A stretch of DNA of 64,000 nt from Sumerlaeia bacterium (lineage in GTDB: Bacteria > Sumerlaeota > Sumerlaeia > SLMS01 > JAHLLQ01), in the NCBI GenBank assembly GCA_040219255.1, contig JAVJSW010000073.1, forward strand, positions 10,621-74,620. The letters are read 5' to 3'. Made by a program: the position numbers and the translations under genes. This document shows, one piece after another, positions 8,336-38,242 of this stretch (positions are counted from its first letter, which is position 1; every line of letters starts with the position of its first letter). The notes under the pieces are model-generated. The model made no database searches. It worked only from the letters and a program-made list of their open reading frames with translations, and had not been told where the DNA came from.

Positions 8336-8341
8336 CGGGTA

Positions 8342-11905: not shown

Positions 11906-12072
11906 CCATAGAGAAGATTGAAAAACATGGCGTTGTGCTATGTCAAAAACAACAACCCGTTACAAACGGAGAATGGCACGTCTTTCGAGTAAGGGAGGGC
12001 ATCAGTCAGAGCGGCTCCCCATCGAGCCCCTGCACCTTGAGAGTTTGATTGTGAAATCAGGAGATTACGACC

Positions 12073-12330
12073 ATGTCGAAGCTTGCAAACAACGGCGGAC
12101 TGACCATTCGCGACATCGCCCGCATTACGGGCTATAGCCGTTCCACGGTTTCTCTGGCCATCAACGATAGCGACAAGATCAACGTCGAGACGAAGAAGCT
12201 GATCATGGAAACGATCGGCCGTGTCGGCTACAGCCCCAACCCCGCCGCCCGCGCCCTGGGTATCCGCAGCCGCCAGGTTGTGGCCGCCCGCAAGGCCCAG
12301 ACCGGTCCGTCCCTCAGCCACGTCGCCTGA
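12073..12330 (+). CDS. Stand-alone LacI-family HTH DNA-binding protein (85 aa)
   Basis: TIRDIARITGYSRSTVSLAIN...GYSPNPAARAL; AGGAG RBS upstream; no effector domain. Confidence 0.85.
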   Translation: MSKLANNGGLTIRDIARITGYSRSTVSLAINDSDKINVETKKLIMETIGRVGYSPNPAARALGIRSRQVVAARKAQTGPSLSHVA

Positions 12331-12398
12331 GAACCGCCGCCTCCGGGAAGGCTCTTCTTCCTAAAGGCCCCATGACTGAGCCCGGGCCCGGGTCCTTT

Positions 12399-12968: not shown

Positions 12969-13080
12969 AGGCGCTTACTCCGTTCATTGCGGGAGCCGAT
13001 TCCCAGATACAAGACCACAGCCTAGGGTGACGGACCCGTCCCGTCGCAAATGAAAAAACGAGCGTTCCTTTACTAATGCG

Positions 13081-14610
13081 TCACTGCGACGATTCTGAGG
13101 CCGTGGGCACGGGTCCCTCGTTCAGATTCACCAGGCGCATGGTCATCCAGACATTGAGGAAGAGCAGGATCGCGAGGGCAACGAAGACCGCGGCGGTCAG
13201 AGTTCGGCGCCAAGCGTTGCGGCGCCGCGTGGTGCTCTCCGCGCCTTCCACCATGGCCACCAGTTCGTCGCGGGCCGTGCCATCGGGAAGGACTTCGGCC
13301 TCGATGCGGGCAAGGGCGATGTCGCCATTGACGATGGCGTCGCGGATCAGGTTTTCGCGGGCGCGCAGCAGCAGCACGCGGGCTTCCATGTTCCCGGGCC
13401 AGAGTTGGAGCGCGTGGTTGAGGTCGTAGATCAGGCGGGCGTGGTCGCGATAGCTCATTTCGGACCCGGTTCCGACGCGGTCTTGCAGGTTCTGGACGAG
13501 GGCCATCGATTCCTGGCGCCGCGCGGTGCCACGCAGGTAGTCTTGGAGGCGGTCGACGAATTCGGCGGCGGTCAATTTGCGTTCGCTGTGCTCGGCCACC
13601 ATGGCTTTCAGGGCCAAATCCACGAGGTCTCGCGGGCTGTCGGCGCCGAGAGTCTTGGTGATGGGCCGGATTTCGCCCAGGGCGGCCTTGTAGAAGATCG
13701 AGCGGCTGTCCTCGCCCGGGTGGGGCGGCTGCTTGCTCAGCACATAGAACAGCGTTGCCCCCAGAAGGTAAACATCCGTCCATGGCCCCAGATCGCAGGC
13801 CGTGTCGGTGGTTTGCTCAGGCGCCATAAAGGCCAGGGTGCCGGAGGGATTTTGCGATCGGCGGCAATTGGGCAGGGGATCCTCCAGAAGCGACGGCAGC
13901 TTTTCCGCCAGCAGTTCCTCGTCGAAGACCATGGCCAGACCCCAATCCATCAGGACCACTTCGCCGAATTCACCGACGGCCACCTGGTGGGGTTTGATGT
14001 CGCGGTGAATGATGCCTCGGCTGTGGGCAAAGGCCACCGCCTGGGCCACCTGGACCATGATGGGGAGGTGCTTCTCCAGGTAAGCGTCGCGCGAGAGCGT
14101 TTCGTATTCCGCCTTGATGAGTTCGTTCCACGGTTTGCCGCGGATGTACTTCATCGCGATGGCGGGGCGGTCGTCCCCGTCGCGCACCAGGTCATAGACG
14201 GGCACGATGTTGGGGTGCTCCAGCGCCGCCAGCGTCAGGGCTTCGTACTCGAAGCTTTCCTCCAGTTCCCGCAGCCGTTCCGGCGAATCGGCGACGGATG
14301 CGGTGATGTCCGGGCGGATCGCTTTGAGCGCGACGAGACGTCCCAGGCTGGCCTGCCGGGCCGCCCAGACTTCGCCAAAGCCGCCTTCGCCGATCACGTC
14401 GCGGTTCTTGAAGGTGCCCGAACCGCGGGCGATCCAGCCCGGCTCGCGCGTTGCCGCCATGGCGGGTAGCTCACTGGCCGAGGGCGGCAAGTCCAGCGAA
14501 TCGCTCAGCGTCTCGGCATGCTTCGCCAGCCACGTGCGGCTCGCCCTCAGGGTCCGTCCCTCGGGGTCGGTGGGCAGATCGTCTGGCGTTTGAATGTCCG
14601 GTCGGGTCAT
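13081..14610 (-). CDS. Hanks-type Ser/Thr protein kinase with C-terminal TM anchor
   Basis: GEGGFG, VALK, HPNIVPVYD, HRDIKPHQV, DWGLA, GTLAFMAPEQ and DVYLLG motifs; TM near C-terminus. Confidence 0.9.
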   Translation of the reverse strand: MTRPDIQTPDDLPTDPEGRTLRASRTWLAKHAETLSDSLDLPPSASELPAMAATREPGWIARGSGTFKNRDVIGEGGFGEVWAARQASLGRLVALKAIRPDITASVADSPERLRELEESFEYEALTLAALEHPNIVPVYDLVRDGDDRPAIAMKYIRGKPWNELIKAEYETLSRDAYLEKHLPIMVQVAQAVAFAHSRGIIHRDIKPHQVAVGEFGEVVLMDWGLAMVFDEELLAEKLPSLLEDPLPNCRRSQNPSGTLAFMAPEQTTDTACDLGPWTDVYLLGATLFYVLSKQPPHPGEDSRSIFYKAALGEIRPITKTLGADSPRDLVDLALKAMVAEHSERKLTAAEFVDRLQDYLRGTARRQESMALVQNLQDRVGTGSEMSYRDHARLIYDLNHALQLWPGNMEARVLLLRARENLIRDAIVNGDIALARIEAEVLPDGTARDELVAMVEGAESTTRRRNAWRRTLTAAVFVALAILLFLNVWMTMRLVNLNEGPVPTASESSQ

Positions 14611-14809
14611 GGACGGGGGCAACCTGTGGGCCGGGGATGTGGTGCGCAATCTGCGGAGCAGAAGAAAGGCCGGGGGCCTCGCGCGGCAAGCCCGAGTTCG
14701 TGGATCCGGGCTTGCAACGCTCCGGCCCGGCCCTTTGAAATGCGCCCCGCAAGTCAGCGGCTTGCGCTAAGCCCAATTCTTCCAACTTCCCGTTAGGACT
14801 CCGCGATCC

Positions 14810-16333
14810 ATGGACAAACCCTCCGCGCCCGGCCCCGTCTGGGCGAAACGCGTCGCTCACGAAGAGCGCGAAACGGCCGCTCTGAACGTCGCCTACTGCG
14901 CCGGCCGCGACGTCAAGACGCGCCCCATGGCGGACGAAGCGCTGATTCCCTACGATCTGGCGACCAACACGGCCCACGCGCTGATGCTGGCCGAACGCGG
15001 CATCCTGAGTTCCACCGAAGCCGAGGCCATTCTGCGGGGCCTGGCGGAGGTCAAGCGGCGCTTCGAAGCGGGCGACCCGGTCCTCGACCCGGCCTGTGAA
15101 GACGTGCACATGAGCAGCGAGGTTATTGTCACCGAAATCGCCGGACCGGAAGCCGGCGGCAGGCTGCACACGGGGCGCAGCCGCAACGATCAGGTGGCCA
15201 CTGACATGCGCCTTTGGCTGCGGGAACGGCTGGTGGCATTGGCCGGCGAGATCGCTGTCCTGACGCGGGTCCTCGCCGATCACGCCAAACGCCACGCCAA
15301 CACCGTCTGCCCCGGCTTCACCCACATGCAGCCCGCGATGGTCACCACCTGGGGACATTGGGTCGCGGCCTACCTGCCGCGTTTCCTGCGCGATCTGCGC
15401 GCCATCGAGGCACTCCTCGCCGAGTGCGACGAGTGCCCCCTGGGCGCCGCCGCGTCCTATGGCACCTCCTGGCCAATCGACCGCAACCGCACGGCGGAAC
15501 TGCTGGGCTTCAAGCGCCCTGCACCCTCGACTATCGATGCGATCTGGAGCCGGGGCGAGCTGGAGAGCCGATTCGCCGCCATTGTTGCCCAGGTTCTCAG
15601 CCATTTGTCTGGCATCGGGCAGGACCTCATTCTGTTTTCCACGCCGCCGCGGGAATGGCTGCGCCTTCCCGATGGCTGCGTTACCGGCAGCAGCATCATG
15701 CCTCAGAAGCGGAACCCGGATTTCGCGGAAGTCACCCGCTCGAAAGCCGCCGTCGCCGCCGGTCATGTGCAGCAACTGCTCGGCATCGCCCACGCCTTGC
15801 CGGGCGGCTACAATCGCGACACACAATGGACGAAGTACATCGCGATGGACGTGGCGGAGGAAGTGCGCAATGGCCCGTTGCTGTTCGCGGCGGCCTTTGA
15901 GGGCCTGAAGGTCAACACGGAGGAGATGCGCGAGGCGTGCCGCGAGGGCTTCCTGAACGCGACGGACGTGGCGGATTTCCTGGCTCGTAGCCGCAAGCTG
16001 CCCTTCCGCTCCTGCTATCGCGTGGTCGGCGCGGCGGTGAAGGCCTCCGAGGCAGAGGGCGAACTGACCCTGGAAGCGTTGAACGACGCGCTGGCCGAGG
16101 TGGCGCCGGACGCGCGGCCGCTGGAGCTGGAGGAGTGGCTGGGTCTGTCGGAGCCGGAGCGGCTGTTGTCGCAGCGCACCCAAACCGGCGGCCCGCATCC
16201 CGACGCGGTGGCGGGCGACGCGGTGGCGCTGGGCGAGGAATGCCAAGCGGTGACCCGGCGCATTCAACGCGCCGCCGAGCGATGGCAGGGGGCGATGACG
16301 ATGCTGATGGGGCGGCTCGATTCCGCGAAATAA
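14810..16333 (+). CDS. argH: Argininosuccinate lyase
   Basis: EDVH, LHTGRSRNDQVATD, PGFTHMQPA, GSSIMPQKRNPD and GYNRD motifs. Confidence 0.93.
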   Translation: MDKPSAPGPVWAKRVAHEERETAALNVAYCAGRDVKTRPMADEALIPYDLATNTAHALMLAERGILSSTEAEAILRGLAEVKRRFEAGDPVLDPACEDVHMSSEVIVTEIAGPEAGGRLHTGRSRNDQVATDMRLWLRERLVALAGEIAVLTRVLADHAKRHANTVCPGFTHMQPAMVTTWGHWVAAYLPRFLRDLRAIEALLAECDECPLGAAASYGTSWPIDRNRTAELLGFKRPAPSTIDAIWSRGELESRFAAIVAQVLSHLSGIGQDLILFSTPPREWLRLPDGCVTGSSIMPQKRNPDFAEVTRSKAAVAAGHVQQLLGIAHALPGGYNRDTQWTKYIAMDVAEEVRNGPLLFAAAFEGLKVNTEEMREACREGFLNATDVADFLARSRKLPFRSCYRVVGAAVKASEAEGELTLEALNDALAEVAPDARPLELEEWLGLSEPERLLSQRTQTGGPHPDAVAGDAVALGEECQAVTRRIQRAAERWQGAMTMLMGRLDSAK

Positions 16334-16393
16334 AACTTTATCGGATTGGCCGTGTCCAAACTGTCATGGATTCATGAGGCCACGAGGCCGGGG

Positions 16394-16421
16394 TTGACGC
16401 CCGGCGCAAACCGCTCTTAAT
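16394..16421 (+). promoter_or_regulatory. Putative sigma70-type promoter
   Basis: TTGACG-N16-CTTAAT about 40 nt upstream of the pyruvyl transferase start. Confidence 0.3.
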
Positions 16422-16461
16422 CCCCGCCATTGCTTGTTTTCCGGAGGCCCCGCCCGCTCCC

Positions 16462-17517
16462 ATGCGCATCGGCATCGTCACTTTTCACCGCGTCGTGAAC
16501 GCCGGCGGGTTCCTTCAGGCCTATGCGCTTCAGCAGTTTCTGCGCAACGCCGGCCACGACGCCATGATCGCCAACCACATCGACCGCGGCGTTCTCAAGC
16601 AGGAGATGAAATCGGCCATCCATCGCGCCAAAGGCTTCAAGCGCTTCGCCGAGCTGCTGCCCATCTGGCGCTATCGCCAACTCCAGCAGAAGCACTTCCA
16701 CCTCTCGCCCCCCATCAAGGACCCGGCCAGCTATGACTGGTCTTATTTCGACGTGGTGGTCTTCGGCAGCGACGAGCTGTGGAACTACGAGAACTTCTTC
16801 TATGGTCTGAAACCGTTCTTCTTCGGCCACGGCATCGAGGGGCCACGAAAAGTCTCCTACGCCCCCAGTTTCGGCGAGATCAAGCCGACGGACAAACTGC
16901 CCGAGCAGGTCGTCTCTGGAATCAAGAGCCTGGACGCGGTGGCCGTGCGCGATCACAACTCGGTCGAGGTCGTGAAGACCCAAACCGGCATCACGCCCGA
17001 GCTGGTGCTGGACCCGACGCTGATCTACGATTTCGAAGGCGATGTGGTGGCGGATAACGCCCGCGACGACGCCCTGATCGTGTACGCGACCAGCGTCAGC
17101 GAACCGCACCGCGAGCAGCTTCGGGCGTTCGCCAAGGACAAGGGACTGCGGCTGGTGTCGCTCGGCACCCGCCAGTGGTGGTGCGACGAAGGCTACGACA
17201 AGATTTCTCCCTTCGAGGTGCTCGGCTGGTTCTCGAAGGCGCCCTACGTTTTCACGAACACCTTCCACGGAACGATTTTCGCCACGAAGTTCGGTGCCAC
17301 GAGCTGCATCAACATCGGCCACGGCAAGGCCAACAAGATCCTGTCGCTCTCCAGGACGCTGGGCCTTGAGAATCGCATCCTGAAACCGGGCGAGAGCTGC
17401 GCCGACATCTTCGAGCGCCCCGTCGCCAGCCAGGCGATTCAGGAGCGGCTCGCCGATTCCATCGCCGCCTCGCGCAACTATCTGCTTACCCAATGCGCCG
17501 CGGCGCGGGAGAAGTAA
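16462..17517 (+). CDS. Polysaccharide pyruvyl transferase family protein
   Basis: TFHRVVNAGGFLQAYAL, VFGSDELWN, SYAPSFG, VAVRD, VLDPTL and TNTFHGTIF motifs. Confidence 0.9.
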   Translation: MRIGIVTFHRVVNAGGFLQAYALQQFLRNAGHDAMIANHIDRGVLKQEMKSAIHRAKGFKRFAELLPIWRYRQLQQKHFHLSPPIKDPASYDWSYFDVVVFGSDELWNYENFFYGLKPFFFGHGIEGPRKVSYAPSFGEIKPTDKLPEQVVSGIKSLDAVAVRDHNSVEVVKTQTGITPELVLDPTLIYDFEGDVVADNARDDALIVYATSVSEPHREQLRAFAKDKGLRLVSLGTRQWWCDEGYDKISPFEVLGWFSKAPYVFTNTFHGTIFATKFGATSCINIGHGKANKILSLSRTLGLENRILKPGESCADIFERPVASQAIQERLADSIAASRNYLLTQCAAAREK

Positions 17518-17519
17518 CC

Positions 17520-18374
17520 ATGGCGACGCGCCTGGAAAACGAACCGCTTTCCAAACATACGACGCTCAAGATCGGCGGCCCCGCCGAGGTGCTCTCCATC
17601 CCGGATGACCTCGACGATCTGTTGGCCGAGATCCGTCACTGTCAGGAAAACGGCATCACCTATCGCATCCTGGGCCGAGGTTCGAACCTGCTGGTGAACG
17701 ACAAAGGTGTTAAGGGCTTCGTGATCAAGCTGTCGAAAGCTTGCTCCGAACTGACCTTCGAGGGCGACGGCCGCGTCATCTGCGGCGCCAGCGTGACCTT
17801 TCAGAAGTTCATCAAGTTCTGTATCGAGAACGATTTGTATGGGAATGAAAACCTGCAATCGGTGCCCGGAGCGATGGGCGGCGGGATTTTCATGAACGCC
17901 GGCACCTGGACGGATAAGAATCTTTACTTGTCCGACTACCTGGTGAAAGTGAAATATTTCGACGGCAAAGAAATCCGCGAGATCGCCAAGGAAGACTGCC
18001 GCTTCGGTTATCGCTCTTCGATCTTCCAGGAAAAGCCTGAGTGGGTGATTCTTTCCGCGGAGTTCAAACTGCCCCACCAGCCCAAGGAAGTGGGCGAGAA
18101 AGCCAAGCGCGACCGCGTCGAGTGGTCCAAAGGCTATCAGGACATCACCTATGCCAACGCGGGCTCGGTTTTCCGGGCGGGGCACGGCCGAGCCTACAAC
18201 TGGGTCAAGGGCATGAAAATCGGCGGAGCCGGGTGGTCCGAACGGACCGGCAACTGGATCAACAACTACGGCAGCGCCAAGTGCAGTGACGTGCTTTGGC
18301 TGATCCGCATCGTCAAAGTTCTGAGCTTTCTGATGGGGCGGAAAGCCTCGATCGAGTGGATTTACTGGAAGTAG
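17520..18374 (+). CDS. Divergent MurB-like FAD-dependent enolpyruvyl reductase
   Basis: HTTLKIGGPAE, LGRGSNLLV.D.G, VPG.MGG.IFMNAG, FGYRSSIF, NAGSVF and terminal Glu motif; HANF replaced by TGNW. Confidence 0.85.
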   Translation: MATRLENEPLSKHTTLKIGGPAEVLSIPDDLDDLLAEIRHCQENGITYRILGRGSNLLVNDKGVKGFVIKLSKACSELTFEGDGRVICGASVTFQKFIKFCIENDLYGNENLQSVPGAMGGGIFMNAGTWTDKNLYLSDYLVKVKYFDGKEIREIAKEDCRFGYRSSIFQEKPEWVILSAEFKLPHQPKEVGEKAKRDRVEWSKGYQDITYANAGSVFRAGHGRAYNWVKGMKIGGAGWSERTGNWINNYGSAKCSDVLWLIRIVKVLSFLMGRKASIEWIYWK

Positions 18375-18379
18375 CAGGC

Positions 18380-19567
18380 TCAGAGCCCGCGGCGATAAGT
18401 CTTCAACAGTTCTCCGCCATACGTCCGGACGAGCCGAATGGGACGCCAGAGGTAGAGCAACGGCGCGAAGATTCTCGGCAGCGGGAACGTGGCCCGATCC
18501 TTCTCGGAAGGATGGGCGCGAGCCATCGCGTACCTGGCCAGTTCCATGCGCTTGGTCGTCTGATCGCGAAGAAGGCTGCTGGGCCCGTAGCAAATCCACT
18601 CTGGCAGGGGCGGCGCATTGCCCAGCAGGTACCGGCGGATCGCGCGCGCGTACCAGCGATCCAGCCGGCGGCACTCCACCCGGTCCGTCATGGCATCGGG
18701 CACATCGTAACCGAGGACGTCGCGAAGCAGCCGCAGGCTGATCTGGCAGATGCGCAGCAGCCCTTTGCTGCGGGCTTCCTGGGCCAGAAGGTCCCAGTCG
18801 ATGGGAAATTTGCAGGTCATCAGGCCGACATCACACAACCATCCAAGGCGCGCCCAGCCGTGCTTGAAGCCATGGGCGCAGAGCGCGATGATGGTGTGTT
18901 CGGGTTTGAGGAAGAGGAACTTCCACCCCTGGAGCCGAATCTCCAGGGCCTGCGCGATCCAGTCGCGATCCAGGGGAAAATCGTAGGCTTCCGAACCGAA
19001 GGAGTGATGCAACTCGAGGTGGGCCTTCGTCCGCGAGCAGACCAGGCTGCGGTGAAAACGTGTGTCGCTCTGCGACGGCGCGATGGCGAAACCGCCTTCC
19101 GACGCCAGAACCCGGACCGCTTCCTCGAAGGCCTCGGGCAGCACGAGCAAGTCGATGTCGGCGCTGTATCGTTCGCTCAATCCGCCATAGAGCACGTGTG
19201 AAAGCAGCATGCCCTTGTAGGGCACGGCCGCGATGCCGTGGGTCTTGAGAAGTTTGACGACTTCGCCCAGCACGTGGACCTGCACCAGATTGCGGCGGGC
19301 GGTGTGCTCGGCCCATTGGCGCAGAGCCTTGGCGATTTGAGTGCTGGGGAATAGAGCTGGCCGGGCCTGGAAGTGCCGATGGGCGAGGCCCGCGAGGCCG
19401 TGCGAGCGGCACAGGTGGACGAAGGCCTCCCAGTCGAACCCTTCGGCGGCCGTAAGTCTGCGGACGCGCTCTTCCAGTTCGCCGGAGAGCATTTCCGGCG
19501 GCCGCGCGAGGCAAAACATCAGCCGCCTCTCGCGCGAAGGTTCCCGGTCCTCAGCAGCGCCCGGCAT
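18380..19567 (-). CDS. Uncharacterised nucleotidyltransferase family (NTP_transf_5-like)
   Basis: PYKG..L...LY....R...DIDLLV, LELH and HGFKHGW.RL.WL.D motifs. Confidence 0.82.
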   Translation of the reverse strand: MPGAAEDREPSRERRLMFCLARPPEMLSGELEERVRRLTAAEGFDWEAFVHLCRSHGLAGLAHRHFQARPALFPSTQIAKALRQWAEHTARRNLVQVHVLGEVVKLLKTHGIAAVPYKGMLLSHVLYGGLSERYSADIDLLVLPEAFEEAVRVLASEGGFAIAPSQSDTRFHRSLVCSRTKAHLELHHSFGSEAYDFPLDRDWIAQALEIRLQGWKFLFLKPEHTIIALCAHGFKHGWARLGWLCDVGLMTCKFPIDWDLLAQEARSKGLLRICQISLRLLRDVLGYDVPDAMTDRVECRRLDRWYARAIRRYLLGNAPPLPEWICYGPSSLLRDQTTKRMELARYAMARAHPSEKDRATFPLPRIFAPLLYLWRPIRLVRTYGGELLKTYRRGL

Positions 19568-20609
19568 AATTCAGGTCGTAGTACTCGCGATATTCCCCGC
19601 TGCGGCAGGACGCCAGCCAGCCCTCGTGGTCGAGGTACCACTGCACGGTTTGGCGCAGGGCGCCGCGGAAGTCGTGCCGGGGGCGCCAGCCGAGTTCCCT
19701 TTCGATTTTTGAAAAGTCGATCGCGTACCGCCGGTCGTGGCCGGGGCGGTCCTTCACGTAAGTCACCAGTCCGCGGCGCGGACCGTTCGCAAGGGGCGCA
19801 ACCATTTCGTCGATCAGGTCGCAGAGGGCGTGGACCAATTCGATGTTGGGGACTTCGTTGTCGCCGCCGATGCAGTAGGTTTCCCCGCCGCGGCCCTTGA
19901 GGAAAGCGGTGAGGAGCGCTTCGCAGTGGTCCTCGACGTAGAGCCAGTCGCGCACGTTCATGCCATCGCCATAGACCGGCAGCTTTTTGCCTTCGATAGC
20001 GTTGCAGATCATGACCGGGATCATTTTCTCGGGGAACTGCCAGGGGCCGAAATTGTTCGAGCAGTTCGTCGTCACCGTGTCCATGCCGTGGGTGTGGTGG
20101 CAAGCGCGGACGAGGTGGTCGCTGGCGGCTTTGCTGGCGGAGTAAGGGGAGTTGGGGGCGTAGTTCGTGGTCTCGCTGAAGGGCGGATCGGCAGGGCCGA
20201 GGGACCCGAAGACTTCGTCGGTGGAGACATGAAGGAAACGGCCCTTGATCGACTGCTCCACCCAAGCCTTGCGGGCGGCTTCGAGGAGGGCGTGGGTGCC
20301 TTCCACGTTGGTCTTGATAAAGGCTCCCGCGTCAAGGATCGAGCGGTCCACGTGGCTCTCGGCGGCCAGATGGAAAACACCGTCGATGGAGACCTCGGCG
20401 AAGAGGGAGTCGAGGAGGTCGCGGTCTGTGATGTCGCCGCGGACGAATCGGAAACGGGGGTTATCGCGGGCCTGCTCGAGATTCGCCAGATTTCCAGCGT
20501 AAGTCAAAGCGTCGAGGACAACGATGTCTTGCTCCGGCAGTTCCCGGAGGATTCGGTGGACAAGGTTCGAACCGATGAAGCCGGCCCCGCCGGTGATCAG
20601 CCATGCCAT
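19551..20609 (-). CDS. rfbB: dTDP-glucose 4,6-dehydratase
   Basis: TGGAGFIGS, LTYAGN, HLAAESHVDRSI, STDEV, PYSASKA and DRPGHDRRYA motifs. Confidence 0.96.
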   Translation of the reverse strand: MAWLITGGAGFIGSNLVHRILRELPEQDIVVLDALTYAGNLANLEQARDNPRFRFVRGDITDRDLLDSLFAEVSIDGVFHLAAESHVDRSILDAGAFIKTNVEGTHALLEAARKAWVEQSIKGRFLHVSTDEVFGSLGPADPPFSETTNYAPNSPYSASKAASDHLVRACHHTHGMDTVTTNCSNNFGPWQFPEKMIPVMICNAIEGKKLPVYGDGMNVRDWLYVEDHCEALLTAFLKGRGGETYCIGGDNEVPNIELVHALCDLIDEMVAPLANGPRRGLVTYVKDRPGHDRRYAIDFSKIERELGWRPRHDFRGALRQTVQWYLDHEGWLASCRSGEYREYYDLNYAGRC

Positions 20610-20982
20610 AAGAGTGCCCTTTCCTATGGGCGCGCTCGCCCCGGGTCTCAATAGACGAGGGGTTGGGGATGCCGGTCAAGGCGACTTGCGCTTTATTAGA
20701 GCCACCTATTTCGGACGGCCAACCTCTCTTGACACTTGCTCGTCAATTCCCGCAATCACACGCGTCCGCCTCATTTTCCCCGGAACGCCAGACGGTGCCG
20801 AGAGGCCCGGCCAGCGGGGGGGACGATGGGGGGCGACCGATGAATCGCCAGCCGGCGCTCTTGGGCTGTGAGCCGAACTGTGGCTCTCTCCCCCGCGCCG
20901 GCGATAAAAAAATTATTCGATTGGCCTCCGCGGTCATATCCCCGCGGCCTGGAGCCCATCCAGCGTCTAAAGGACCCCCTTC

Positions 20983-21762
20983 ATGAAAACAGTTATTCTC
21001 GCCGGTGGCTTGGGAACGCGACTCAGCGAAGAAACCGTTTTGCGCCCCAAACCCATGGTGGAGGTCGGCGGCAAGCCCATCCTCTGGCACATTCTCAACA
21101 TTTACGCCGCCCACAACTTCACGGAATTCATCATCGCACTTGGCTACAAGGCGGAGTTCGTGAAGGAGTACTTCCTGAATTTCTACGCTCTGAACAACGA
21201 TCTGACGGTGGACCTCGCCGCCGGCCAGACCAAGGTCCATGACGGCAAGCAGCCCAACTGGAAGATTCACCTGAAGGACACGGGCCTGCACACCATGACT
21301 GGCGGCCGCATCAAGCGCCTGCGCGATTGGATCGGCGACGAAACCTTTATGGTCACCTATGGCGACGGCCTCGCCAACGTGGATATCGGCAAGCTGGTGG
21401 AATTCCACAAGGCCCACGGCAAGCTGGCCACCCTGACCGCCGTTCGCCCCCCGGCCCGCTTCGGCGGTCTGCGGTTCGAGGGCGACCGCATCGCCGAGTT
21501 CCTGGAGAAGCCCCAGACCGGCGAAGGCTGGATCAATGGCGGCTTCTTCGTGCTCGAGCCGGGCGTGTTCGACTACATCGCCGACGACACGATTTCCTGG
21601 GAGCGCGAACCCCTGGAAGCCATCGCCAATGCGGGCCAACTGATGGCCTTCCGCCACGAGGGCTTCTTCCAGCCGATGGACACGATCCGCGAGAAGACCA
21701 TGCTCGATAAGATGTGGAACAGCGGGAACGCGCCCTGGAAGGTCTGGGGCGACCAGAGCTGA
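20983..21762 (+). CDS. rfbF: Glucose-1-phosphate cytidylyltransferase
   Basis: LAGGLGTRLSEET..RPKPMVEVG, DTG..TMTGGRIKR, TYGDG, WINGGFFV and MDT.RE motifs. Confidence 0.96.
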   Translation: MKTVILAGGLGTRLSEETVLRPKPMVEVGGKPILWHILNIYAAHNFTEFIIALGYKAEFVKEYFLNFYALNNDLTVDLAAGQTKVHDGKQPNWKIHLKDTGLHTMTGGRIKRLRDWIGDETFMVTYGDGLANVDIGKLVEFHKAHGKLATLTAVRPPARFGGLRFEGDRIAEFLEKPQTGEGWINGGFFVLEPGVFDYIADDTISWEREPLEAIANAGQLMAFRHEGFFQPMDTIREKTMLDKMWNSGNAPWKVWGDQS

Positions 21763-21824
21763 GGGCTGCTCATCCCGAACGTCCGATCGACCCAATTGAC
21801 GATACGAAAGAGGTTTAGGCAGCG

Positions 21825-22964: not shown

Positions 22965-22979
22965 GAAAAGGAAGCCTAC

Positions 22980-23936
22980 ATGGCCGACTCAAAAGCGATC
23001 TTAGTCACCGGAGCGGGCGGTTTCCTCGGCAAACGCGTTTGCCGCCGACTCCTGGCCGATGGCCACACCGTTCACGCGCTGGAGTTTCGCGAGGACGCGA
23101 TTCGCAGCATCCCCATCCCTGAGGGTGCGCCGGGAACTCTGGTTCCCCAGATTCTCGATCTCACCAACGCCACCTCCCTCGACAATCTTTTCGAGGCCGC
23201 TCCGATCCAAAGCGTCATCCACCTGGCGGCTTACGGCGTGCGCGCCGACCGCCTCGAAGTGGACAAAATGCTCAACGTGAACGCCACCGCCACGGCGATG
23301 CTGGCGCACGCGGCCAAGAAGGCCGGCATCGAGCGCTTCCTTCTGATCGGCTCCGGCTCGGAATATCTGCCGGTGGCGCGTCCCACGACCGAAAGCGATG
23401 TGATGGGGGCGATCAACCTCTACGGCGCGTCGAAGATCAGCGCGTGGTACACGCTCGATTATCTTCGGCGCATGGAATCCTTCCCCCTCGTGACGCTGCG
23501 GCCGTTCGGATTTTACGGGATCGGGGAAGTCGTTCCGCGCCTGGTGCCCTACGTTCTGGAGCAGGCGAAGGCCGGCCAGACCATGGAGTTCACGGAAGGC
23601 ACACAGATTCGCGACTGGTTGTTTGTCGACGATCTTGTCGACGCGATCGTGCGGGCGTTGCTGATGCCTCAGGCGCTGGGCGAAGTTTTCAACATCGGTT
23701 ACGGTCCTTCCGGGGCCTGCACGGTGCGCGAAGCGGTGGAGACCGCGGTCCGTGTGGCCGGGGGCGATCTGTCGCTGGCGAAGTTCGGCGCCATCGTGCG
23801 CGAGCGCGCCGAACCGCCGTACTTCGTCTGCGATCCATCGAAGGCCATGACGCTGCTGAAGTGGCGGCCGAAGACGGGCCTGCGCGAAGGCCTTGAGCTG
23901 ACCGCGGAGTCCCTTTGGGGAGCGAAGGACAGCTAA
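22980..23936 (+). CDS. NAD(P)-dependent NDP-sugar reductase/epimerase
   Basis: TGAGGFLG, HLAA, GSGSEY, YGASK and QIRDW..VDD motifs. Confidence 0.85.
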   Translation: MADSKAILVTGAGGFLGKRVCRRLLADGHTVHALEFREDAIRSIPIPEGAPGTLVPQILDLTNATSLDNLFEAAPIQSVIHLAAYGVRADRLEVDKMLNVNATATAMLAHAAKKAGIERFLLIGSGSEYLPVARPTTESDVMGAINLYGASKISAWYTLDYLRRMESFPLVTLRPFGFYGIGEVVPRLVPYVLEQAKAGQTMEFTEGTQIRDWLFVDDLVDAIVRALLMPQALGEVFNIGYGPSGACTVREAVETAVRVAGGDLSLAKFGAIVRERAEPPYFVCDPSKAMTLLKWRPKTGLREGLELTAESLWGAKDS

Positions 23937-23941
23937 CCCCC

Positions 23942-25549
23942 ATGAGCGACGACGCACGGAAAAATGCCTCACGGCGGGTGAACTTCGCCGTTATGGTTTC
24001 CTTCCTGGGGCGGACGATGGGGATTCTCTCCAGTCTGTTCCTGCTACCCGTGCTGTTCCGCTTTCTCAGCGATGAAGAAATCGGCCTGTGGTTCCTGCTG
24101 CTCAGCAGCCAGACGTTCCTCGGGCTCCTGGGTTTTGGCGTGGCGCCCACAATGGCGCGCCATATCGCTTTCGCAAAAGGCCTGAGCGGCCCTGACCCGG
24201 AAGTCGAACTGACGGGCGAAAGCCGCGAGCGCATCGCGAATCTGGTCACGACGGGGCGGTACATCCTCTTTGGTGTCGCCGCGCTTGTCTTGTTGGTGGC
24301 GCTGCCTATCGGGTACTTCGCGATCAAGGGGCTCGATCTGGTCGAGGTCCCCTACAGCACGGCGAATATGGCCTGGCTCATCGTCTGCATCGGTTATTCC
24401 ATTGGTGTTTATATTCAGTATCTCAGTTCGTACCTCATCGGCATCGGCTATGTGGGCTGGGACACGACGATCCGGATTCTGGTGGAGTTCGTGGCTCTGG
24501 GGGCCAAATTCCTGATCGTGATTTTCGGCGGTGGCATCGTCGGCCTCGCCATCGCCCAGGTTGCAACCGCGGTGGTCAACCGGGCCCTGGTCGTGGCGTT
24601 TATTCGCAAGCGCCGGCCCGATCTGTTCCATCTTAAGGGGCGTTGGCAGAGAAGCCTGGTGCAAGAGACCTGGCGCCCGGCGATTTCCTACTGGGTCATG
24701 ATGCTGGGGGCGTTCATGCTCAGCAAGACCGACGCCTACTTCATCGCGTTCTTCAAGGGCGTCAACGAACTGCCGCTGTACCAGGCGGCCTATCGGCTTT
24801 TCGAGAACGTGATGGATATCGCCATCTTGTTCACCACCACATCGGCGACTTTCATCAGCCAAGCCTGGAAAGCGGAGGACATGCGCGGCGTGCATGCTCT
24901 GTCCTTTCGTTCCTGGCGCATCGGTGTGGTTGTGATGGCCACGGGGGCGGCTTTCCTGCTGACCGGGGGAAACGATTTCCTGCATCTTTGGCTAAAGACC
25001 GAAGACCAGTTGCCGATGCTGGTTCTGGTGATGATCGCTTGTCTGTTCGGCATGCGGGTGAATTTCAAGTTGCTCAGCATGGCCGCCCGGGCGACGGACT
25101 TCGAGCGCTGGGCCGTGACAAGTGTGATCGCTGGCATCCTCAATCTGGGTCTGACCTGGTGGCTAATCCAGGAGCTTGGCTTGTGGGGCGTTCCCTTGAG
25201 CACGTTGATTGCTGTCACGGTGACGAACGGATGGTACGTCACCTATCACTCGCTCAAGCGTCTCAAGGTCTCGTTCGGCCGGTACCTGTTGAACATGCCG
25301 CTTTTCGGGGCTGGAATTTTTCTGGTCTGCTTCCTGAGTATCGAGGGGCTCTTCGACGCGGCTTCTCATCTGACTTTCTATCAGGAGCAGACCGATTGGG
25401 CGCGGGTCGCGATTTCCAGCGGCGTTTGCGCGATAGTGGGGGGATCGGCGTTCATCGCCGTCTCCTTCAGCCGGGTCACCGGCCAACTCCGCCGTGTGTC
25501 CCGCCGGATGCACGGCATGGTTCGAAAGCAACCTTCACCCTCCGTCTAA
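23942..25549 (+). CDS. wzx: Wzx-type polysaccharide flippase
   Basis: About 13-14 TM MOP-like pattern, LS.EEIGLW and KTD motifs, located in the polysaccharide locus. Confidence 0.75.
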   Translation: MSDDARKNASRRVNFAVMVSFLGRTMGILSSLFLLPVLFRFLSDEEIGLWFLLLSSQTFLGLLGFGVAPTMARHIAFAKGLSGPDPEVELTGESRERIANLVTTGRYILFGVAALVLLVALPIGYFAIKGLDLVEVPYSTANMAWLIVCIGYSIGVYIQYLSSYLIGIGYVGWDTTIRILVEFVALGAKFLIVIFGGGIVGLAIAQVATAVVNRALVVAFIRKRRPDLFHLKGRWQRSLVQETWRPAISYWVMMLGAFMLSKTDAYFIAFFKGVNELPLYQAAYRLFENVMDIAILFTTTSATFISQAWKAEDMRGVHALSFRSWRIGVVVMATGAAFLLTGGNDFLHLWLKTEDQLPMLVLVMIACLFGMRVNFKLLSMAARATDFERWAVTSVIAGILNLGLTWWLIQELGLWGVPLSTLIAVTVTNGWYVTYHSLKRLKVSFGRYLLNMPLFGAGIFLVCFLSIEGLFDAASHLTFYQEQTDWARVAISSGVCAIVGGSAFIAVSFSRVTGQLRRVSRRMHGMVRKQPSPSV

Positions 25550-33240: not shown

Positions 33241-34560
33241 ATGACGACCCTCCTCCTGGCGGTGCTCTTCCTCTCCAACTTCTCTGTGCTTGCCTGGTGT
33301 TTCATCAAGCGTGAGCGGATCTATGAGTACCCCTTCTTCCTGGGTGGCATCTTCGCCGTGTTCGTGCTTCCGCAGGCGTTGGCGCTGGCTCAAAATCCCG
33401 AACCGATGTCAACGCAGGCGGTGAATCGCATCTTCGTGGTGTCGATTCTGTGTCTCTTGGGCGGCTTCGCCGGCTACTTCGTCTATCGGCCCAAACCCTC
33501 CACGCTCAGCCGTTTCGACTCTCATCTTCATCCGGTCCGGGTGTTCCACGCAGGCATTCTGTTCCTCGTTGTCGGTCTCGTCAGCTTTCGACTGATGCTC
33601 CAATCCGCCACGGCGGGCTCCTCCAGCATCGGCAATTTCACGGGTTGGTCGACCAAGTTCCACTTCTTCAGCCAGCTCGTCTATCCGGCACTTGCCATCT
33701 TGATCTTCAACGCCATTCGCAAGAAAACGCTCGGGTCCTATATCCTGGTTCTCGCCGCGGCCGCCATGCCCTTGCGAAGCGCGATCAAATGGGGGCGGCG
33801 TGAAGACATGGCGACGCTGGCGCTGACGATCGGCATCGCACTTTTCTTCGAGAAGGGCTATAAGGTCAATCGTGCCGTGGCTTTGGGCGGCTTGCTCTTT
33901 GTCGCCGTCGCCATTCCCTTCACCACGATTTATCGCCAGTACTCCCGCGATGGCCGCTACTCCGAGATGCTCCAGTACAACCCCGTGGAGATTTTCATCG
34001 AGCACGTCAACGCTGGTGAGGTGCTCGAACTCAGAAATGCCGCCTATTACGCGGACACCGCTCTCGTGACCAATACCATCGCGTACGGCACCGGCTATTG
34101 GGACACGATGGTCTTCCGTTTTGTCCCGGCCCAGTTCGTCGGCGCCGAATTCAAGAACAGCCTCCGTTTCAAAATCGGCCGCGAAATCCACCCGGATATC
34201 AAGTACGCCATTCACCCTGGCACAACCAAGACCGGCATGGGCGATACCTTCGAGCAACTCGGTTACTTCGGCTTTGTCGTCTTCCTCATCATTGGTGCAA
34301 TCTTCCGGTTCGTGTGGAGCCTCGCCCGAGAACGGGAGAATGTCGCCGCCCAGGTCATGTACGTCACCCTCGTCCCATCCGCCATGACCTCCGTCACCCA
34401 CGGAACGATGCGCTTCTTTCCCGACTTCGTGTTCCTCCTCGTCTTCATCGGCATCATGGTGCTCCACGCCCGCACCCGCCGAGTCATCGTCATCCCCAAT
34501 TCGCGATCACGCCAACCCCAAGTCGCCGCCATGCAACCCCGATGGAACACGCCGCAATGA
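33241..34560 (+). CDS. wzy: Putative Wzy-type polysaccharide polymerase
   Basis: About 10-11 TM with a large periplasmic loop, GRR motif, embedded among glycosyltransferases. Confidence 0.65.
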   Translation: MTTLLLAVLFLSNFSVLAWCFIKRERIYEYPFFLGGIFAVFVLPQALALAQNPEPMSTQAVNRIFVVSILCLLGGFAGYFVYRPKPSTLSRFDSHLHPVRVFHAGILFLVVGLVSFRLMLQSATAGSSSIGNFTGWSTKFHFFSQLVYPALAILIFNAIRKKTLGSYILVLAAAAMPLRSAIKWGRREDMATLALTIGIALFFEKGYKVNRAVALGGLLFVAVAIPFTTIYRQYSRDGRYSEMLQYNPVEIFIEHVNAGEVLELRNAAYYADTALVTNTIAYGTGYWDTMVFRFVPAQFVGAEFKNSLRFKIGREIHPDIKYAIHPGTTKTGMGDTFEQLGYFGFVVFLIIGAIFRFVWSLARERENVAAQVMYVTLVPSAMTSVTHGTMRFFPDFVFLLVFIGIMVLHARTRRVIVIPNSRSRQPQVAAMQPRWNTPQ

Positions 34561-35825
34561 CCCTGAGCGCTCCCGCCTCCGACCCCACCTCGTCCTACGA
34601 GCCGGCCGCCGAGACAGTCGCCGCCGGGCCTCTAGCGATCCTGTTCCACCGCTTCGGCCCTTATCACCGGGCCCGCATCGAGGGCGCCGCCCAGTTCGGT
34701 CCGGTCCTCGCCATTGAAATGTCGAGCCGCACCAGCGTCTACGCCTGGGACCCGGTCGAGTTGAGCGGCGACGTGCGCCGCGAAACGCTCTTCAAGGACT
34801 CTGACTCGCGCGAGCAGGACTTCGCCACCCTTTACGCCCGCATCGACCAGGTTCTCTCCGAGGCCAGACCCTGCGCCGTCGCTGTCAATGGCTGGTCCGA
34901 CAACGGAGCGCTCGCGTCGCTCCTCTGGTGCCGCAAGAATGCCGTGCCAGCCATCGTGATGTCGGAAACGCAGGAGCGCGATTTCGCCCGCGTCGGCTGG
35001 AAAGAATGGATCAAGCGGCGCATCGTCGGCGGCTTCTCCGCCGGCTTCGGAGGCGGGCACAACCACACCGCTTACCTGGCCAAGCTCGGCCTGCCGCGGG
35101 ACTCGCTCTTCATCGGTTACGACGCCGTGGACAACGCCCATTTCCGCGAGAAATCCGCCGCCGCACGCCAGGACCCCGCCGCCGCCCGCGCCACACACGG
35201 TATCCCGGAACGCCCCTTTATTCTGACCTCCAATCGCTTCATCGAGAAAAAAAACCTCGCCCGCGTGCTCGACGCCTTCGCCCTCTATCGCAAGGAAGCC
35301 CCCCAAACCTCCCGCCTCTGGGACCTCGTGTTGCTCGGTGACGGAGACTTGCGAGCCGATTTGGAAGCCCGCGTCGCCGAGCACGGCCTGCAGGACCACG
35401 TCCACTTCTGTGGCTTTCGCCAGTACGACGAACTGCCCGCCTGGTACGGACTCACGGACCTCTTTCTTCACGCCAGCACCACCGAGCAATGGGGCCTCGT
35501 CGTCAACGAAGCCATGGCGGCTGGCCTGCCGGTCGTCGTTTCGGAAGCCTGCGGGTCCTCCGAACTGGTGGCCGACGGCGAAAGCGGTTACCGCTTCGAT
35601 CCCCTGGAAATGCGCCAGTTGGCGGACATTCTGCTCAAGATGGCTGCAGACCCGGAGAAGCTCTCCGCCATGGGCGAACGAGGTGCCGAGTTGATCGCCG
35701 ATTACTCGCCCGCAACCTTTGGCGAGGGCATCTGGCGCGCCGTCGAAGCCGCCCGCCGCAACGGAGCCAAGCCCCTCAATTTCCTCGATGCGCTGATCGT
35801 GCGCTACTGCCACCCGCGATCATGA
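34557..35825 (+). CDS. Glycosyltransferase family 4
   Basis: GPYHRAR, RFIEKKN and EQWGLVVNEAMAAGLP motifs. Confidence 0.92.
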   Translation: MTLSAPASDPTSSYEPAAETVAAGPLAILFHRFGPYHRARIEGAAQFGPVLAIEMSSRTSVYAWDPVELSGDVRRETLFKDSDSREQDFATLYARIDQVLSEARPCAVAVNGWSDNGALASLLWCRKNAVPAIVMSETQERDFARVGWKEWIKRRIVGGFSAGFGGGHNHTAYLAKLGLPRDSLFIGYDAVDNAHFREKSAAARQDPAAARATHGIPERPFILTSNRFIEKKNLARVLDAFALYRKEAPQTSRLWDLVLLGDGDLRADLEARVAEHGLQDHVHFCGFRQYDELPAWYGLTDLFLHASTTEQWGLVVNEAMAAGLPVVVSEACGSSELVADGESGYRFDPLEMRQLADILLKMAADPEKLSAMGERGAELIADYSPATFGEGIWRAVEAARRNGAKPLNFLDALIVRYCHPRS

Positions 35826-37078
35826 GATCCCCCGCCGCTCCGACCGAAGTCAACCCGGCGCCGGCTTCCCCCGCGCCGCCATCGCCGCTGACCGTGACCG
35901 TTCTGATGAGCGGTTGCTCGCGGCTCCAGGGCGGCATGTTCCATTCGATCCGGCGCCTGTGGCAAACGGCCCACGTCCGAGAAGGGATCGCCCCCCGCGT
36001 GCGCGCCGTGGCCGATCCTCACAGCGCCGAGGACAGCGCCACCTACGCCCCCATTCCCGTCGCGGTTTACCCCAGCACCTTCCCCCGCGTCGCTGCCTTC
36101 AGCAAACCGCTCGAAGCCGCCTGCCTCGCCGAGCCGCCCGCCCATGTCGTCTCCGTTCATGGCCTCTGGCAATACCACACGCGCGTCGCCCTGCGGCTCC
36201 AGCAAACCCATGGCACGCCCGTCATCGTGCATCCGCACGGCATGCTGGAGGAATGGGCGCTTCAGTTCTCCCGCTGGAAAAAGCGCCTCGTGGGCGGGCT
36301 CTGGCACGATCGATTCATGCGCGACGCCAACTGCTTCCGCGCCCTCACCCGCTCGGAGTGGCAAGACGTCCGCCGCCTTGGCCTGAAAACGCCGGTGGCT
36401 ATTATTCCGAACGGCATTTTGCTCGAGGACTACGCCGACCTGCCGGACGAGGATGCCTTCGCCGCCCGCTTTCCGGAAGCCGCCGGCCGCAAGCGACTCC
36501 TTTTCCTCTCGCGCATTCACCCGAAAAAAGGCCTGCCGCACCTGATCGAGGCGTGGAAGCAGGTCGCCGACGCGCGGGGCGACGACTGGGTCCTGATGAT
36601 CGCCGGACCGGACCAGTTGGGCCACGAGGCGGAGATGAGGACCCTCGCGGCGGACCTGGGAATCGCTGACGCCATTCATTTTACTGGGCCTCTTTACGAC
36701 GAAGACAAGCGCATCGCCCTCAGCGGCTCCCACGCCTTCGTCCTGCCGTCCTTCAGCGAAGGCTTCCCCGTGGCCGTGCTCGAAGCCTCCGCCTGTCGTC
36801 TGCCGATCGTGATGACGCCCCGATGCAATTTCCCCGAGTTGGAAGAAGCCGGCGGCGGTATCGTCTGCCAACCCGAGGTCGAATCGACCGCCGAGGCTCT
36901 GCGGCAGGTTCTCGCCATGTCCGACTCCGAGCGCGACGCCATGGGCGCGGCGGGCCGGCGCTTGGTCGAAGAACGATATAGCTGGGCGCAGGTTGCCCAC
37001 GCGATGGGCGGGGTGACGCGGTGGCTGGCGGCGGGGGCGAAAAAGGCTGAGGCGCCGGATTGCGTTGTCTTCGATTGA
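35822..37078 (+). CDS. Glycosyltransferase family 4
   Basis: HGLW, PHGML, SRIHPKKG and PSFSEGFPVAVLEA motifs. Confidence 0.92.
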   Translation: MRSPAAPTEVNPAPASPAPPSPLTVTVLMSGCSRLQGGMFHSIRRLWQTAHVREGIAPRVRAVADPHSAEDSATYAPIPVAVYPSTFPRVAAFSKPLEAACLAEPPAHVVSVHGLWQYHTRVALRLQQTHGTPVIVHPHGMLEEWALQFSRWKKRLVGGLWHDRFMRDANCFRALTRSEWQDVRRLGLKTPVAIIPNGILLEDYADLPDEDAFAARFPEAAGRKRLLFLSRIHPKKGLPHLIEAWKQVADARGDDWVLMIAGPDQLGHEAEMRTLAADLGIADAIHFTGPLYDEDKRIALSGSHAFVLPSFSEGFPVAVLEASACRLPIVMTPRCNFPELEEAGGGIVCQPEVESTAEALRQVLAMSDSERDAMGAAGRRLVEERYSWAQVAHAMGGVTRWLAAGAKKAEAPDCVVFD

Positions 37079-37159: not shown

Positions 37160-38047
37160 CTACGCCCCTTCGTGCTTCAGCAAGCCCTGCAAGTACTGCG
37201 TATAGCTGGAGCCTTGCGGCATGCCCGCCAACAGCTCCGCGAACTCATCGCTGGAAATGAAACCCATGCGCCAGGCGACTTCCTCCGGGCAGCCGACTTT
37301 GAAGCCCTGACGCATCTCGATGGTTTCGATGAAGTTCGCCGCCGCCAGTAAGCTCTCGTGCGTGCCGGTGTCCAGCCACGCCACCCCGCGGCCCAGCTTC
37401 TGCACGCGTAACTTGCCTTCCCTCAGGTAATGGCGGTTGACGTCGGTGATTTCCAGTTCGCCCCGGGGAGAAGACTTCAGGTTGCGCGCTACTTCGACGA
37501 CATCGCCATCGTAAAAATACAGCCCCGGAACGGCGTAACGGCTCTTCGGAGCCCTGGGCTTTTCCTCGATCGAGATCGCATTGCCCGCGCTGTCGAAATC
37601 CACCACGCCGTAACGCTCCGGGTCGTTGACGGCGTAGGCGTAGACGACGCCGCCCTCGGTGAATTCGGTGGCGGCGCGGAAATCGCCGAGGCGCCCATAG
37701 AACATGTTGTCGCCCAGAATCAGGCTCACCCGGTCGTTTCCGATAAAGTGCTCGCCAATCAGGAAGGCTTGGGCGATGCCCTCCGGGGCCGGTTGTTCAG
37801 CATACTGGATCGAAAGGCCCCACTGCGAACCGTCGCCCAGCAACTCGTGAAAGCGCGGCAGATCGTGGGGCGTGGAAATCAGAAGGAAGTCACGAATGCC
37901 CAAGAGCATTTGGTGGCTCAGTGGGTAGTAGATCATCGGCTTGTCGTAAACCGGCATGAGTTGTTTGCTGGCCGACAGCGTCAGCGGATAGAGCCGCGTG
38001 CCCGAGCCACCGGCGAGCAGAATGCCTTTGAGAGTCGATGCGCACAT
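37160..38047 (-). CDS. rfbA: Glucose-1-phosphate thymidylyltransferase
   Basis: [16 protein letters not shown]...[24 protein letters not shown] and WLDTGT motifs. Confidence 0.97.
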
Positions 38048-38242
38048 GGGCCGTCGGTTTCCTTTGGCTTCGCGAGGTCGGCGCCGCACGGGCGCGAGGC
38101 CTGGATAAAGCACCCCGCTGGCGGCTCCGCAACAGGCGACTGTGTGTTTGCGTCAGTCGCCGCAAAACCTTTTGCCCCGCAGCGCGGGAGCCCCGCTTCA
38201 TCGTCCGCCCGTCTCGACCGCAAACGCTTGGAAAGGCCCCTC

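Follow-up and report, generated by a model that had tools for sequence, protein, structure and literature searches.

The DNA analysed here, hereafter the window, is a stretch of 64,000 nucleotides from the Sumerlaeia bacterium assembly GCA_040219255.1 (contig JAVJSW010000073.1, positions 10,621 to 74,620, forward strand). It contains a gene for a polysaccharide pyruvyl transferase (PvT) of family PF04230, directly followed by a gene for a flavin adenine dinucleotide (FAD) protein with the fold of MurB, and this pair borders a polysaccharide locus. The D-lactyl ether of muramic acid arises in two steps: MurA transfers an enolpyruvyl group from phosphoenolpyruvate (PEP), and MurB then reduces it by means of its flavin. 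Apart from muramic acid, lactyl (1-carboxyethyl) ethers are found on many surface polysaccharides of bacteria. An earlier reading of the window, made from its letters alone (the original prediction), proposed that the PvT adds an enolpyruvyl ether to the surface glycan and that the MurB paralogue reduces it. Here we describe the pair, its relatives and their gene neighbourhoods, and present the pair as a candidate lactyl-ether module.

The gene pair

The window PvT matches Pfam PF04230 with an E-value of 1e-24 (88.4 bits, cut-off 25.3) over positions 1-270 of the 280 in the profile and is the sole match to this profile in the whole genome. Its stop codon TAA ends at 17517 and is followed by two bases (cc) and the ATG of the MurB-like gene at 17520. 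A longer version of the MurB-like gene, starting at 17493, was considered and rejected: in the alignment the relatives share the Met encoded at 17520 as their start. Since they begin at that Met, the start at 17520 is favoured and the 2-nt spacing is taken as real. The arrangement that the original prediction had described, a PvT gene with a MurB-fold gene 2 nt behind it, is borne out by both the Pfam matches and the coordinates of the open reading frames (ORFs). Arg163 and His269 are invariant in the alignment of the window PvT. A search of the PDB sequences with this protein gave no matches at E <= 1. In GC content the pair is unremarkable within the window. Promoter and terminator scans of 16200-18700 gave nothing above shuffles, and an Rfam scan of 9000-20000 gave no matches. 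A predicted-complex run on the two window proteins scored 0.00, which weighs neither way on binding.

The MurB-like protein is recognised by FAD_binding_4 (E-value 9.7e-14) and marginally by MurB_C (29.3 bits against a cut-off of 27). It barely passes the murB model TIGR00179 (146.9 against 144.5) and falls below the cut-off of NF010480 (197.3 against 259) and of five other matching NCBIfam MurB equivalog models. A profile of its subfamily retrieves the solved MurB structure 4pyt (E-value 4.6e-63, positions 3-278) and also matches 3tx1, 1hsk and 2gqt, all type II MurBs. Each of the short motifs quoted in the original prediction (FGYRSS, NAGSVF, TGNW and a Glu that lies five residues from the C-terminal end) is found in the translation. 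Its claim that FAD motifs and the catalytic Arg, Ser and Glu are kept agrees with the FAD_binding_4 match and with R165, S216 and E279; the catalytic residues of E. coli MurB are, we presume, R159, S229 and E325. The C-domain was likewise correctly described as remodelled; the protein has TGNW and GSVFRAGHG in place of the housekeeping motifs.

The genome (an uncultured-type draft of 5.35 Mb, 83 contigs) matches TIGR00179 at two places, the window and contig C46. The C46 copy lies in the division and cell wall (dcw) cluster, where the order is murE-murF-mraY-murD-ftsW-murG-murC-murB-(ORF without family match)-ftsA. A separate canonical murB, for which the original prediction had advised a search, therefore exists and the window gene is not the genome's only murB. 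There is one copy of murA, on contig C4. No mur or fts gene was found within the annotated part of the window, and the annotation of the neighbours agrees with the earlier placement of the pair at the edge of a polysaccharide locus, outside any dcw or mur cluster. The genome's own dcw MurB also stays below the cut-off of NF010480 (217.8 against 259).

As a separate observation, this dcw MurB (L004:9845-10849) has a Cys at the position of the MurB catalytic Ser (AGCIF). A Cys occupies the same column in 14 of 67 rows of the housekeeping alignment.

A subfamily apart from housekeeping MurB

A word-index search with the window MurB-like protein returned proteins of about 280 residues with 38-60% identity, followed by Firmicutes housekeeping MurBs at 39% or less. 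The former include proteins of a Nostocales cyanobacterium and of the haloarchaeon Natronorubrum texcoconense, one each. Searching for longer proteins in the same way gave three, all with Mur-ligase domains beside MurB domains. An exhaustive search over 1.84 billion representatives (50% identity) yielded 400 sequences with E <= 1e-30. Among the best 150 of these 400, 83 favour a subfamily profile by more than 20 bits, 66 favour a housekeeping profile and one is ambiguous, a split that is partly circular as both profiles derive from our own selections.

The 83 subfamily representatives almost all keep the residues of the active site: Arg165 and Ser167 (83/83 each), Gly215, Ser/Thr216 and Glu279 (81/83 each) and Phe218 (80/83). 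Not one of the 83 has either of two motifs typical of housekeeping MurB, G-S-x-F-K/R-N-P (KNP) and H-A-N/G-F (HANF); KNP is present in 37 and HANF in 46 of the 66 housekeeping representatives. In their place the subfamily C-domain has a shortened loop and an N-W pair (Asn245 in 74/83, Trp246 in 72/83). KNP and HANF are elements that we take to serve binding of uridine diphosphate (UDP) in MurB. Because the catalytic residues are nearly invariant across the subfamily, enolpyruvyl-reduction chemistry appears to have been kept, and the divergent portion of the C-domain would be the presumed UDP-holding region.

A MurB phylogeny was built from 108 rows chosen by hand (IQ-TREE quick search, LG+G4, unrooted). 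A branch with a support of 99, by the Shimodaira-Hasegawa-like approximate likelihood ratio test (SH-aLRT), has on one side 79 rows that include the window protein, its close relatives and, described below, the fusion proteins and the PvT-adjacent MurB-like proteins of Natrinema, Cetobacterium and Prevotella. On the other side are all housekeeping rows, the genome's own dcw copy and, on long branches, viral MurB-like proteins. The tree that the original prediction had recommended as a check hence sets the window protein apart from every housekeeping row. Members of its clade are annotated as 'UDP-N-acetylmuramate dehydrogenase' or 'FAD-binding protein'. Matches to 22 phage records resemble housekeeping MurB, their coverage ending near residue 266. 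Of 58 matching plasmid records two are labelled FAD-binding protein, and another (H8, 30% identity) also aligns to the C-terminus.

The paralogue is rare in the genomes sampled. At E <= 1e-40 the 74 other genomes from its phylum gave no MurB-like paralogue, nor did 400 Bacteroidales queried at E <= 1e-45 with the Prevotella protein, and only one of 399 Clostridia scored with the Cetobacterium protein has one. A motif-based metagenome scan returned 80 stretches, none with a relative, and a scan of metagenomes with a degenerate pattern of the subfamily motif returned 25 loci, none of which encodes a MurB-like protein or a PvT. As an accessory module the pair is rare, and it turns up patchily in hosts that are very distant from one another, a pattern suggestive of horizontal spread.

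One protein, P0325 (674 aa), has a MurB-like domain of the window clade fused to a 2x[4Fe-4S] ferredoxin and an FrhB-like part (F420-hydrogenase beta type). Judged from this fusion, an FrhB-type module may feed electrons to a MurB-type flavoprotein.

Conservation of the pairing

The original prediction also suggested that gene neighbourhoods be surveyed for PvT and MurB pairs, and in this survey the pairing proved to be conserved in bacteria, on an archaeal plasmid, on viral contigs and within fused proteins. A PvT is adjacent to the MurB-like gene, or one gene away from it, in all five clade members with readable context, the window included. On the Natrinema pellirubrum plasmid pNATPE01 a family 2 glycosyltransferase (GT2) gene, the PvT, a 'FAD-binding protein' gene that overlaps the PvT by 17 nt, a flippase gene, aglF and aglM follow each other. 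A replicon of Cetobacterium somerae has the order GT4, PvT, 'FAD-binding protein' and O-antigen polymerase. In a Clostridia genome (L130) a gap of 14 nt separates the PvT from the MurB-like gene. In a Prevotella metagenome-assembled genome (L007) the order is UDP-glucose dehydrogenase, MurB-like, GT4 and PvT, with thus one gene in between. Two proteins that came out of the exhaustive search alone, P0281 (640 aa) and P0291 (645 aa), join PS_pyruv_trans to FAD_binding_4 and MurB_C, in the order of the window pair.

As a control, 80 genome loci were taken, among the matches listed, by means of a motif common to all MurBs, with flanks of up to 6 kb either way. All except one (79 of 80) are housekeeping in appearance; dcw context was checked by Pfam for one of them (L005). 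To look for PvTs, a diverse PvT profile was combined with 22 phmmer queries (E <= 1e-3). A PvT was detected in a single one of the 80 loci listed, and this locus is the Prevotella clade member. The profile and the 22 queries found no PvT in the remaining 79 housekeeping-type loci.

Contig sizes and phylogeny were used to follow the partners further. Among the seven PvTs closest to that of the window, five have a longest contig equal in size to the longest contig of a close MurB-like relative (5787, 5751, 528968, 8888 and 3953). In the PvT tree the window PvT falls in a clade of eight rows (SH-aLRT 99) together with those five size-matched PvTs, and the size-matched partners fall in the window's own small clade in both the PvT and the MurB tree. 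The matching sizes and the shared position of the partners in both trees suggest, if indirectly, that PvT and MurB-like genes travel together.

The viral set comprises nine loci with a full MurB-like gene (L111-L119), six of them distinct, as L111-L114 encode the same protein. Five of the nine carry a PvT-family ORF at full length. In L115 and L119 it lies directly upstream of the MurB-like gene and in L118 two genes upstream. In L112 and L117 it is a short ORF directly downstream, and a PvT remnant of about 60-100 residues occupies this position in L111, L113, L114 and L116.

In six of the viral loci (L111-L114, L116 and L117) the glycan cassette lies beside a phage Mu F-like gene. The cassette order is a 3-deoxy-D-manno-octulosonate (KDO) 8-phosphate synthase-like gene (DAHP_synth_1/NeuB), a GT29-like sialyltransferase, the MurB-like gene, the PvT-like ORF or remnant, a GT2 and a CMP-KDO-synthetase-like cytidylyltransferase.

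Two of the cellular loci have a second PvT-family gene within a few kb of the MurB-linked one, at L007:1296-2522 (Prevotella) and L130:13552-14727 (Clostridia). To go by these second genes, a ketal-forming and an ether-forming PvT may be combined in one glycan locus.

Proposed function

The comparative evidence speaks for the original prediction. We consider it fairly probable that the pair forms a self-contained, MurA-independent module which attaches a lactyl (1-carboxyethyl) ether to a sugar in the neighbouring Wzx/Wzy polysaccharide. In the first step the PvT would add a sugar hydroxyl to C2 of PEP with loss of phosphate, which would give an enolpyruvyl ether. Ketal-forming PvTs presumably reach this enol-ether stage too, by the same addition-elimination chemistry, and a second hydroxyl would then complete the ring. 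In the second step the MurB paralogue, to judge from its conserved residues, would bind FAD, with NAD(P)H or some other donor as the reductant. Hydride would be delivered to C3 of the enol ether, the Arg and Glu would hold the carboxylate or enolate and the Ser/Thr would protonate C2. The product would be a lactyl ether, probably of the (R)/D configuration that MurB makes. The MurB paralogue is read as an enol-ether reductase because its catalytic triad is intact and because it is tightly coupled, or even fused, to a PvT.

MurA seems not to be needed for the module, since the pair occurs on a haloarchaeal plasmid, since neither the murA model TIGR01072 nor the murB model TIGR00179 exceeds its cut-off in any of four archaeal control genomes, and since a search of four viral records, all fragments, gave no murA. 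For the acceptor we lean towards a lipid-linked sugar or an oligosaccharide, because the subfamily lacks the two housekeeping motifs and because lipid-linked units are the substrates of characterised PvTs, CsaB among them, according to the available part of PMC10435577. The same partial text describes PF04230 as a family that uses PEP and whose mechanism is little explored.

A wider reading is offered tentatively, as a possibility that we hold for somewhat doubtful. The MurB fold would have a second widespread job, in which the clade reduces enolpyruvyl ethers made by PF04230 enzymes on lipid-linked or finished glycans to (R)-lactyl ethers, without MurA or a nucleotide-sugar intermediate. By default PF04230 enzymes would form enol ethers, and interception by one of several unrelated reductases (of MurB, FrhB or nitroreductase type) would determine whether a ketal or a lactyl ether results.

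A MurB paralogue that is paired and sometimes fused with a PvT amounts to a concrete, testable two-protein system for a glycan modification that has long been unassigned. If the proposed module is real, the widespread annotation of its clade, a sizeable group of proteins, as cell-wall MurB would be corrected and MurB-like genes in archaea that lack murein would be accounted for. Lactyl-ether glycans would furthermore become predictable from genomes, phage-encoded glycan modification included.

Comparison with known systems

With MurA (EC 2.5.1.7) and MurB (EC 1.3.1.98) the module shares its proposed two-step logic, and its reductase is homologous to type II MurB with the catalytic triad kept. 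It differs in that the first enzyme is a PF04230 PvT and not a protein of the MurA/EPSP-synthase fold. The window-type reductase differs from MurB itself by its size of about 280 residues, its separate clade, the lack of KNP and HANF, its place in a polysaccharide locus and its archaeal relatives.

Lactyl-ether sugars have been studied in O-antigens. Two new genes for the synthesis of glucolactilic acid were reportedly confirmed in Shigella boydii type 17 (Senchenkova 2006, to go by its title), and a study by Knirel in 2017 is said, again by title, to concern E. coli O69/O146. The accessible portion of PMC7685785 lists lactyl-ether sugars for E. coli O58, O69, O124, O146 and O150. It states that O124 has glucolactilic acid where O164 has Glc, and ascribes this difference to a frameshift in wfeP, which its supplement gives as a pyruvyltransferase gene between wfeO and wfeQ. 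In E. coli O124/O164, as far as this source extends, a PvT-family gene that lies within a Wzx/Wzy O-antigen cluster is linked with a lactyl-ether sugar, and the window pair likewise lies in a Wzx/Wzy locus; the window module has a dedicated MurB-type reductase gene beside its transferase. By analogy with O124, a PF04230 enzyme as the source of the C3 unit of a lactyl ether would have genetic precedent, and the idea is less new than the original prediction assumed, because wfeP had been linked before with the glucolactilic acid of E. coli O124/O164. What appears to be new is the MurB-type reductase in a candidate two-gene lactyl-ether module. Full-text literature searches aimed at a PvT together with a MurB-type reductase or with lactyl ethers, subscription journals being largely outside their scope, found no such paper; the E. 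coli O-antigen review emerged from a broader one. In the literature searched no enzyme assay of lactyl-ether biosynthesis was found either, and the wfeP genetics are the only hold there.

Other loci show PvT genes in comparable company. In the sections of PMC4616057 at hand, Klebsiella K8, K22, K37 and K66 have PvT genes yet non-pyruvylated capsules, and the 79 capsular polysaccharide (cps) loci contain in total two nitroreductase genes and one 'coenzyme F420 hydrogenase' gene; the reductase of the window differs in being of the MurB type. A 2026 preprint, in its accessible part, describes a 234-Da sugar, put forward as glucolactilic acid, that accompanies pgl operons in which a pyruvyl transferase gene is present.

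CsaB of Paenibacillus alvei, Pvg1p of Schizosaccharomyces pombe and WcaK of E. coli (colanic acid) belong to PF04230 like the window PvT. They differ from the enzyme proposed here in that they bridge two hydroxyls by a ketal and need no reductase. WcaK lies far from the window PvT in the PvT tree. For Pvg1p and CsaB the available part of PMC10435577 reports a PEP-binding Arg and His, and Arg163 and His269 of the window PvT are of the same residue types.

Alternative explanations

Several points weigh against a lactyl-ether module. The window PvT sequence has no feature by which ether and ketal formers could be told apart, and the characterised PF04230 enzymes CsaB and Pvg1p, with WcaK by annotation, form ketals and not ethers according to the text available of PMC10435577. 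The literature searched yielded no biochemical or structural-chemistry evidence for any clade member. The MurB-linked PvTs are scattered in the PvT tree and do not form a single clade. The sample of readable contexts is small and similarity to the window protein was the route to it, the rarity of the pair means that its conservation rests on few loci, and the contig-size matches are indirect. The viral MurB-like proteins, finally, lie outside the 79-row clade on long branches and may represent an independent recruitment.

The alternative that survives best has the same chemistry acting on a nucleotide sugar (a UDP-, deoxythymidine diphosphate (dTDP)- or cytidine diphosphate (CDP)-hexose), after which a glycosyltransferase would install the lactyl sugar. 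We hold this to be unlikely, if a serious contender. It agrees with MurB itself, which acts on a UDP-sugar in the MurA/MurB route, with the E. coli literature, which assumes UDP-glucolactilic acid, and with the dTDP- and CDP-sugar enzymes that the locus encodes. It agrees poorly with the absence from all 83 subfamily representatives of KNP and HANF, whose part in UDP binding we presume, and with the deletion seen in the C-domain alignment. The characterised PF04230 enzymes, moreover, act on lipid-linked or finished glycans as far as PMC10435577 covers them.

The two genes could also have unrelated jobs, the PvT making an ordinary pyruvate ketal and the flavoprotein catalysing another redox step, or none in sugar synthesis. 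That characterised PF04230 members form ketals, as the same partial source describes, would fit, as would the breadth of FAD_binding_4 as an oxidoreductase fold and the marginal MurB_C match. Such a coincidence is hard to reconcile with adjacency in the same order in distant lineages, with reading frames that often overlap or nearly touch, or with the fusion of both domains in P0281 and P0291. The residues for enolpyruvyl reduction by MurB are nearly invariant in the subfamily, and the 79 housekeeping-type murB loci listed are all without a nearby PvT. We regard unrelated jobs as improbable.

Haloarchaea are organisms without murein. A second MurB that serves the housekeeping MurA, as a back-up for peptidoglycan or to supply a muramic-type sugar for the polysaccharide, with the PvT as a bystander, is very improbable: the TIGR00179 cut-off is passed, the triad is intact and the genome has a MurA, but the protein stays below the cut-off of six other matching MurB equivalog models, belongs to a clade apart from all housekeeping rows that has lost the housekeeping motifs and conserved the link to a PvT, and has a clade relative on the plasmid of a haloarchaeon.

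The surrounding polysaccharide locus

The features annotated around the pair are collected in Table 1. The housekeeping gene argH marks the edge of the locus, and downstream of the pair the Wzx/Wzy-type locus extends to about 38.1 kb. The low-coordinate end of the NTP_transf_5 gene lies 5 nt from the MurB-like stop codon. The genes from 20983 to 23936 together read as a CDP-6-deoxyhexose branch.

Table 1. Genes annotated in and around the PvT and MurB-like pair (window positions).
Feature	Coordinates	Strand	Evidence
Argininosuccinate lyase (argH), housekeeping, locus edge	14810..16333	+	TIGR00838, 351.5 bits vs 279.5
PF04230 polysaccharide pyruvyl transferase (PvT), 351 aa	16462..17517	+	Pfam PS_pyruv_trans
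MurB-fold FAD flavoprotein paralogue, 284 aa	17520..18374	+	FAD_binding_4 and weak MurB_C
NTP_transf_5 nucleotidyltransferase, uncharacterised, convergent with the pair	18380..19567	-	Pfam PF14907, E 2.3e-52
dTDP-glucose 4,6-dehydratase (rmlB)	19551..20651	-	TIGR01181, 467.8 bits vs 365.1
Glucose-1-phosphate cytidylyltransferase (rfbF)	20983-21762	+	TIGR02623, 384.9 bits
CDP-glucose 4,6-dehydratase (rfbG)	21825-22964	+	TIGR02622, 462 bits
Short-chain dehydrogenase/reductase (SDR) epimerase/reductase	22980-23936	+	Pfam Epimerase match
Wzx-like O-unit flippase	23915..25549	+	NF041503, E 6e-35, below cut-off
Sulfotransferase-like gene, weak	25604-26365	+	Sulfotransfer_2, E 0.003, below cut-off
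Sulfotransferase gene, clear	26398-27357	+	Sulfotransfer_1 and Sulfotransfer_3, E about 1e-11
GT2 glycosyltransferase	27361-28290	+	Pfam
GT4 glycosyltransferase	28307-29500	+	Pfam
ORF without family match	29446-30411	-	
GT4 glycosyltransferase	30756-32018	+	Pfam
GT4 glycosyltransferase	32079-33209	+	Pfam
Wzy-like oligosaccharide repeat-unit polymerase	33241..34560	+	TIGR04370, 40 bits, equal to cut-off 40
GT4 glycosyltransferase	35489..37078	+	Pfam Glycos_transf_1, E 9.4e-34
Glucose-1-phosphate thymidylyltransferase (rmlA), far end of locus as read	37160..38113	-	TIGR01207, 445 bits vs 360.65

Given the sulfotransferase genes at 25604-27357, the glycan of the window is probably sulfated as well as carboxyethylated, and it would then be strongly anionic.

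Two further regions of the window were noted on the low-coordinate side of the pair. The stretch from 7208 to 11721 (7208-9205 on the plus strand, 9202-11721 on the minus strand) comprises a minus-strand frame of 839 aa and, on the plus strand, ORFs of 375 and 287 aa; all three lack a Pfam or NCBIfam match. A search of 9000-12500 found no tandem repeats. The AT skew in this stretch is strong, reaching 0.286 at 10001-12000. At 2959-5139 the window encodes a subtilase with a P-domain (Peptidase_S8 and P_proprotein), a combination that is better known from eukaryotic proteases of the kexin/furin type.

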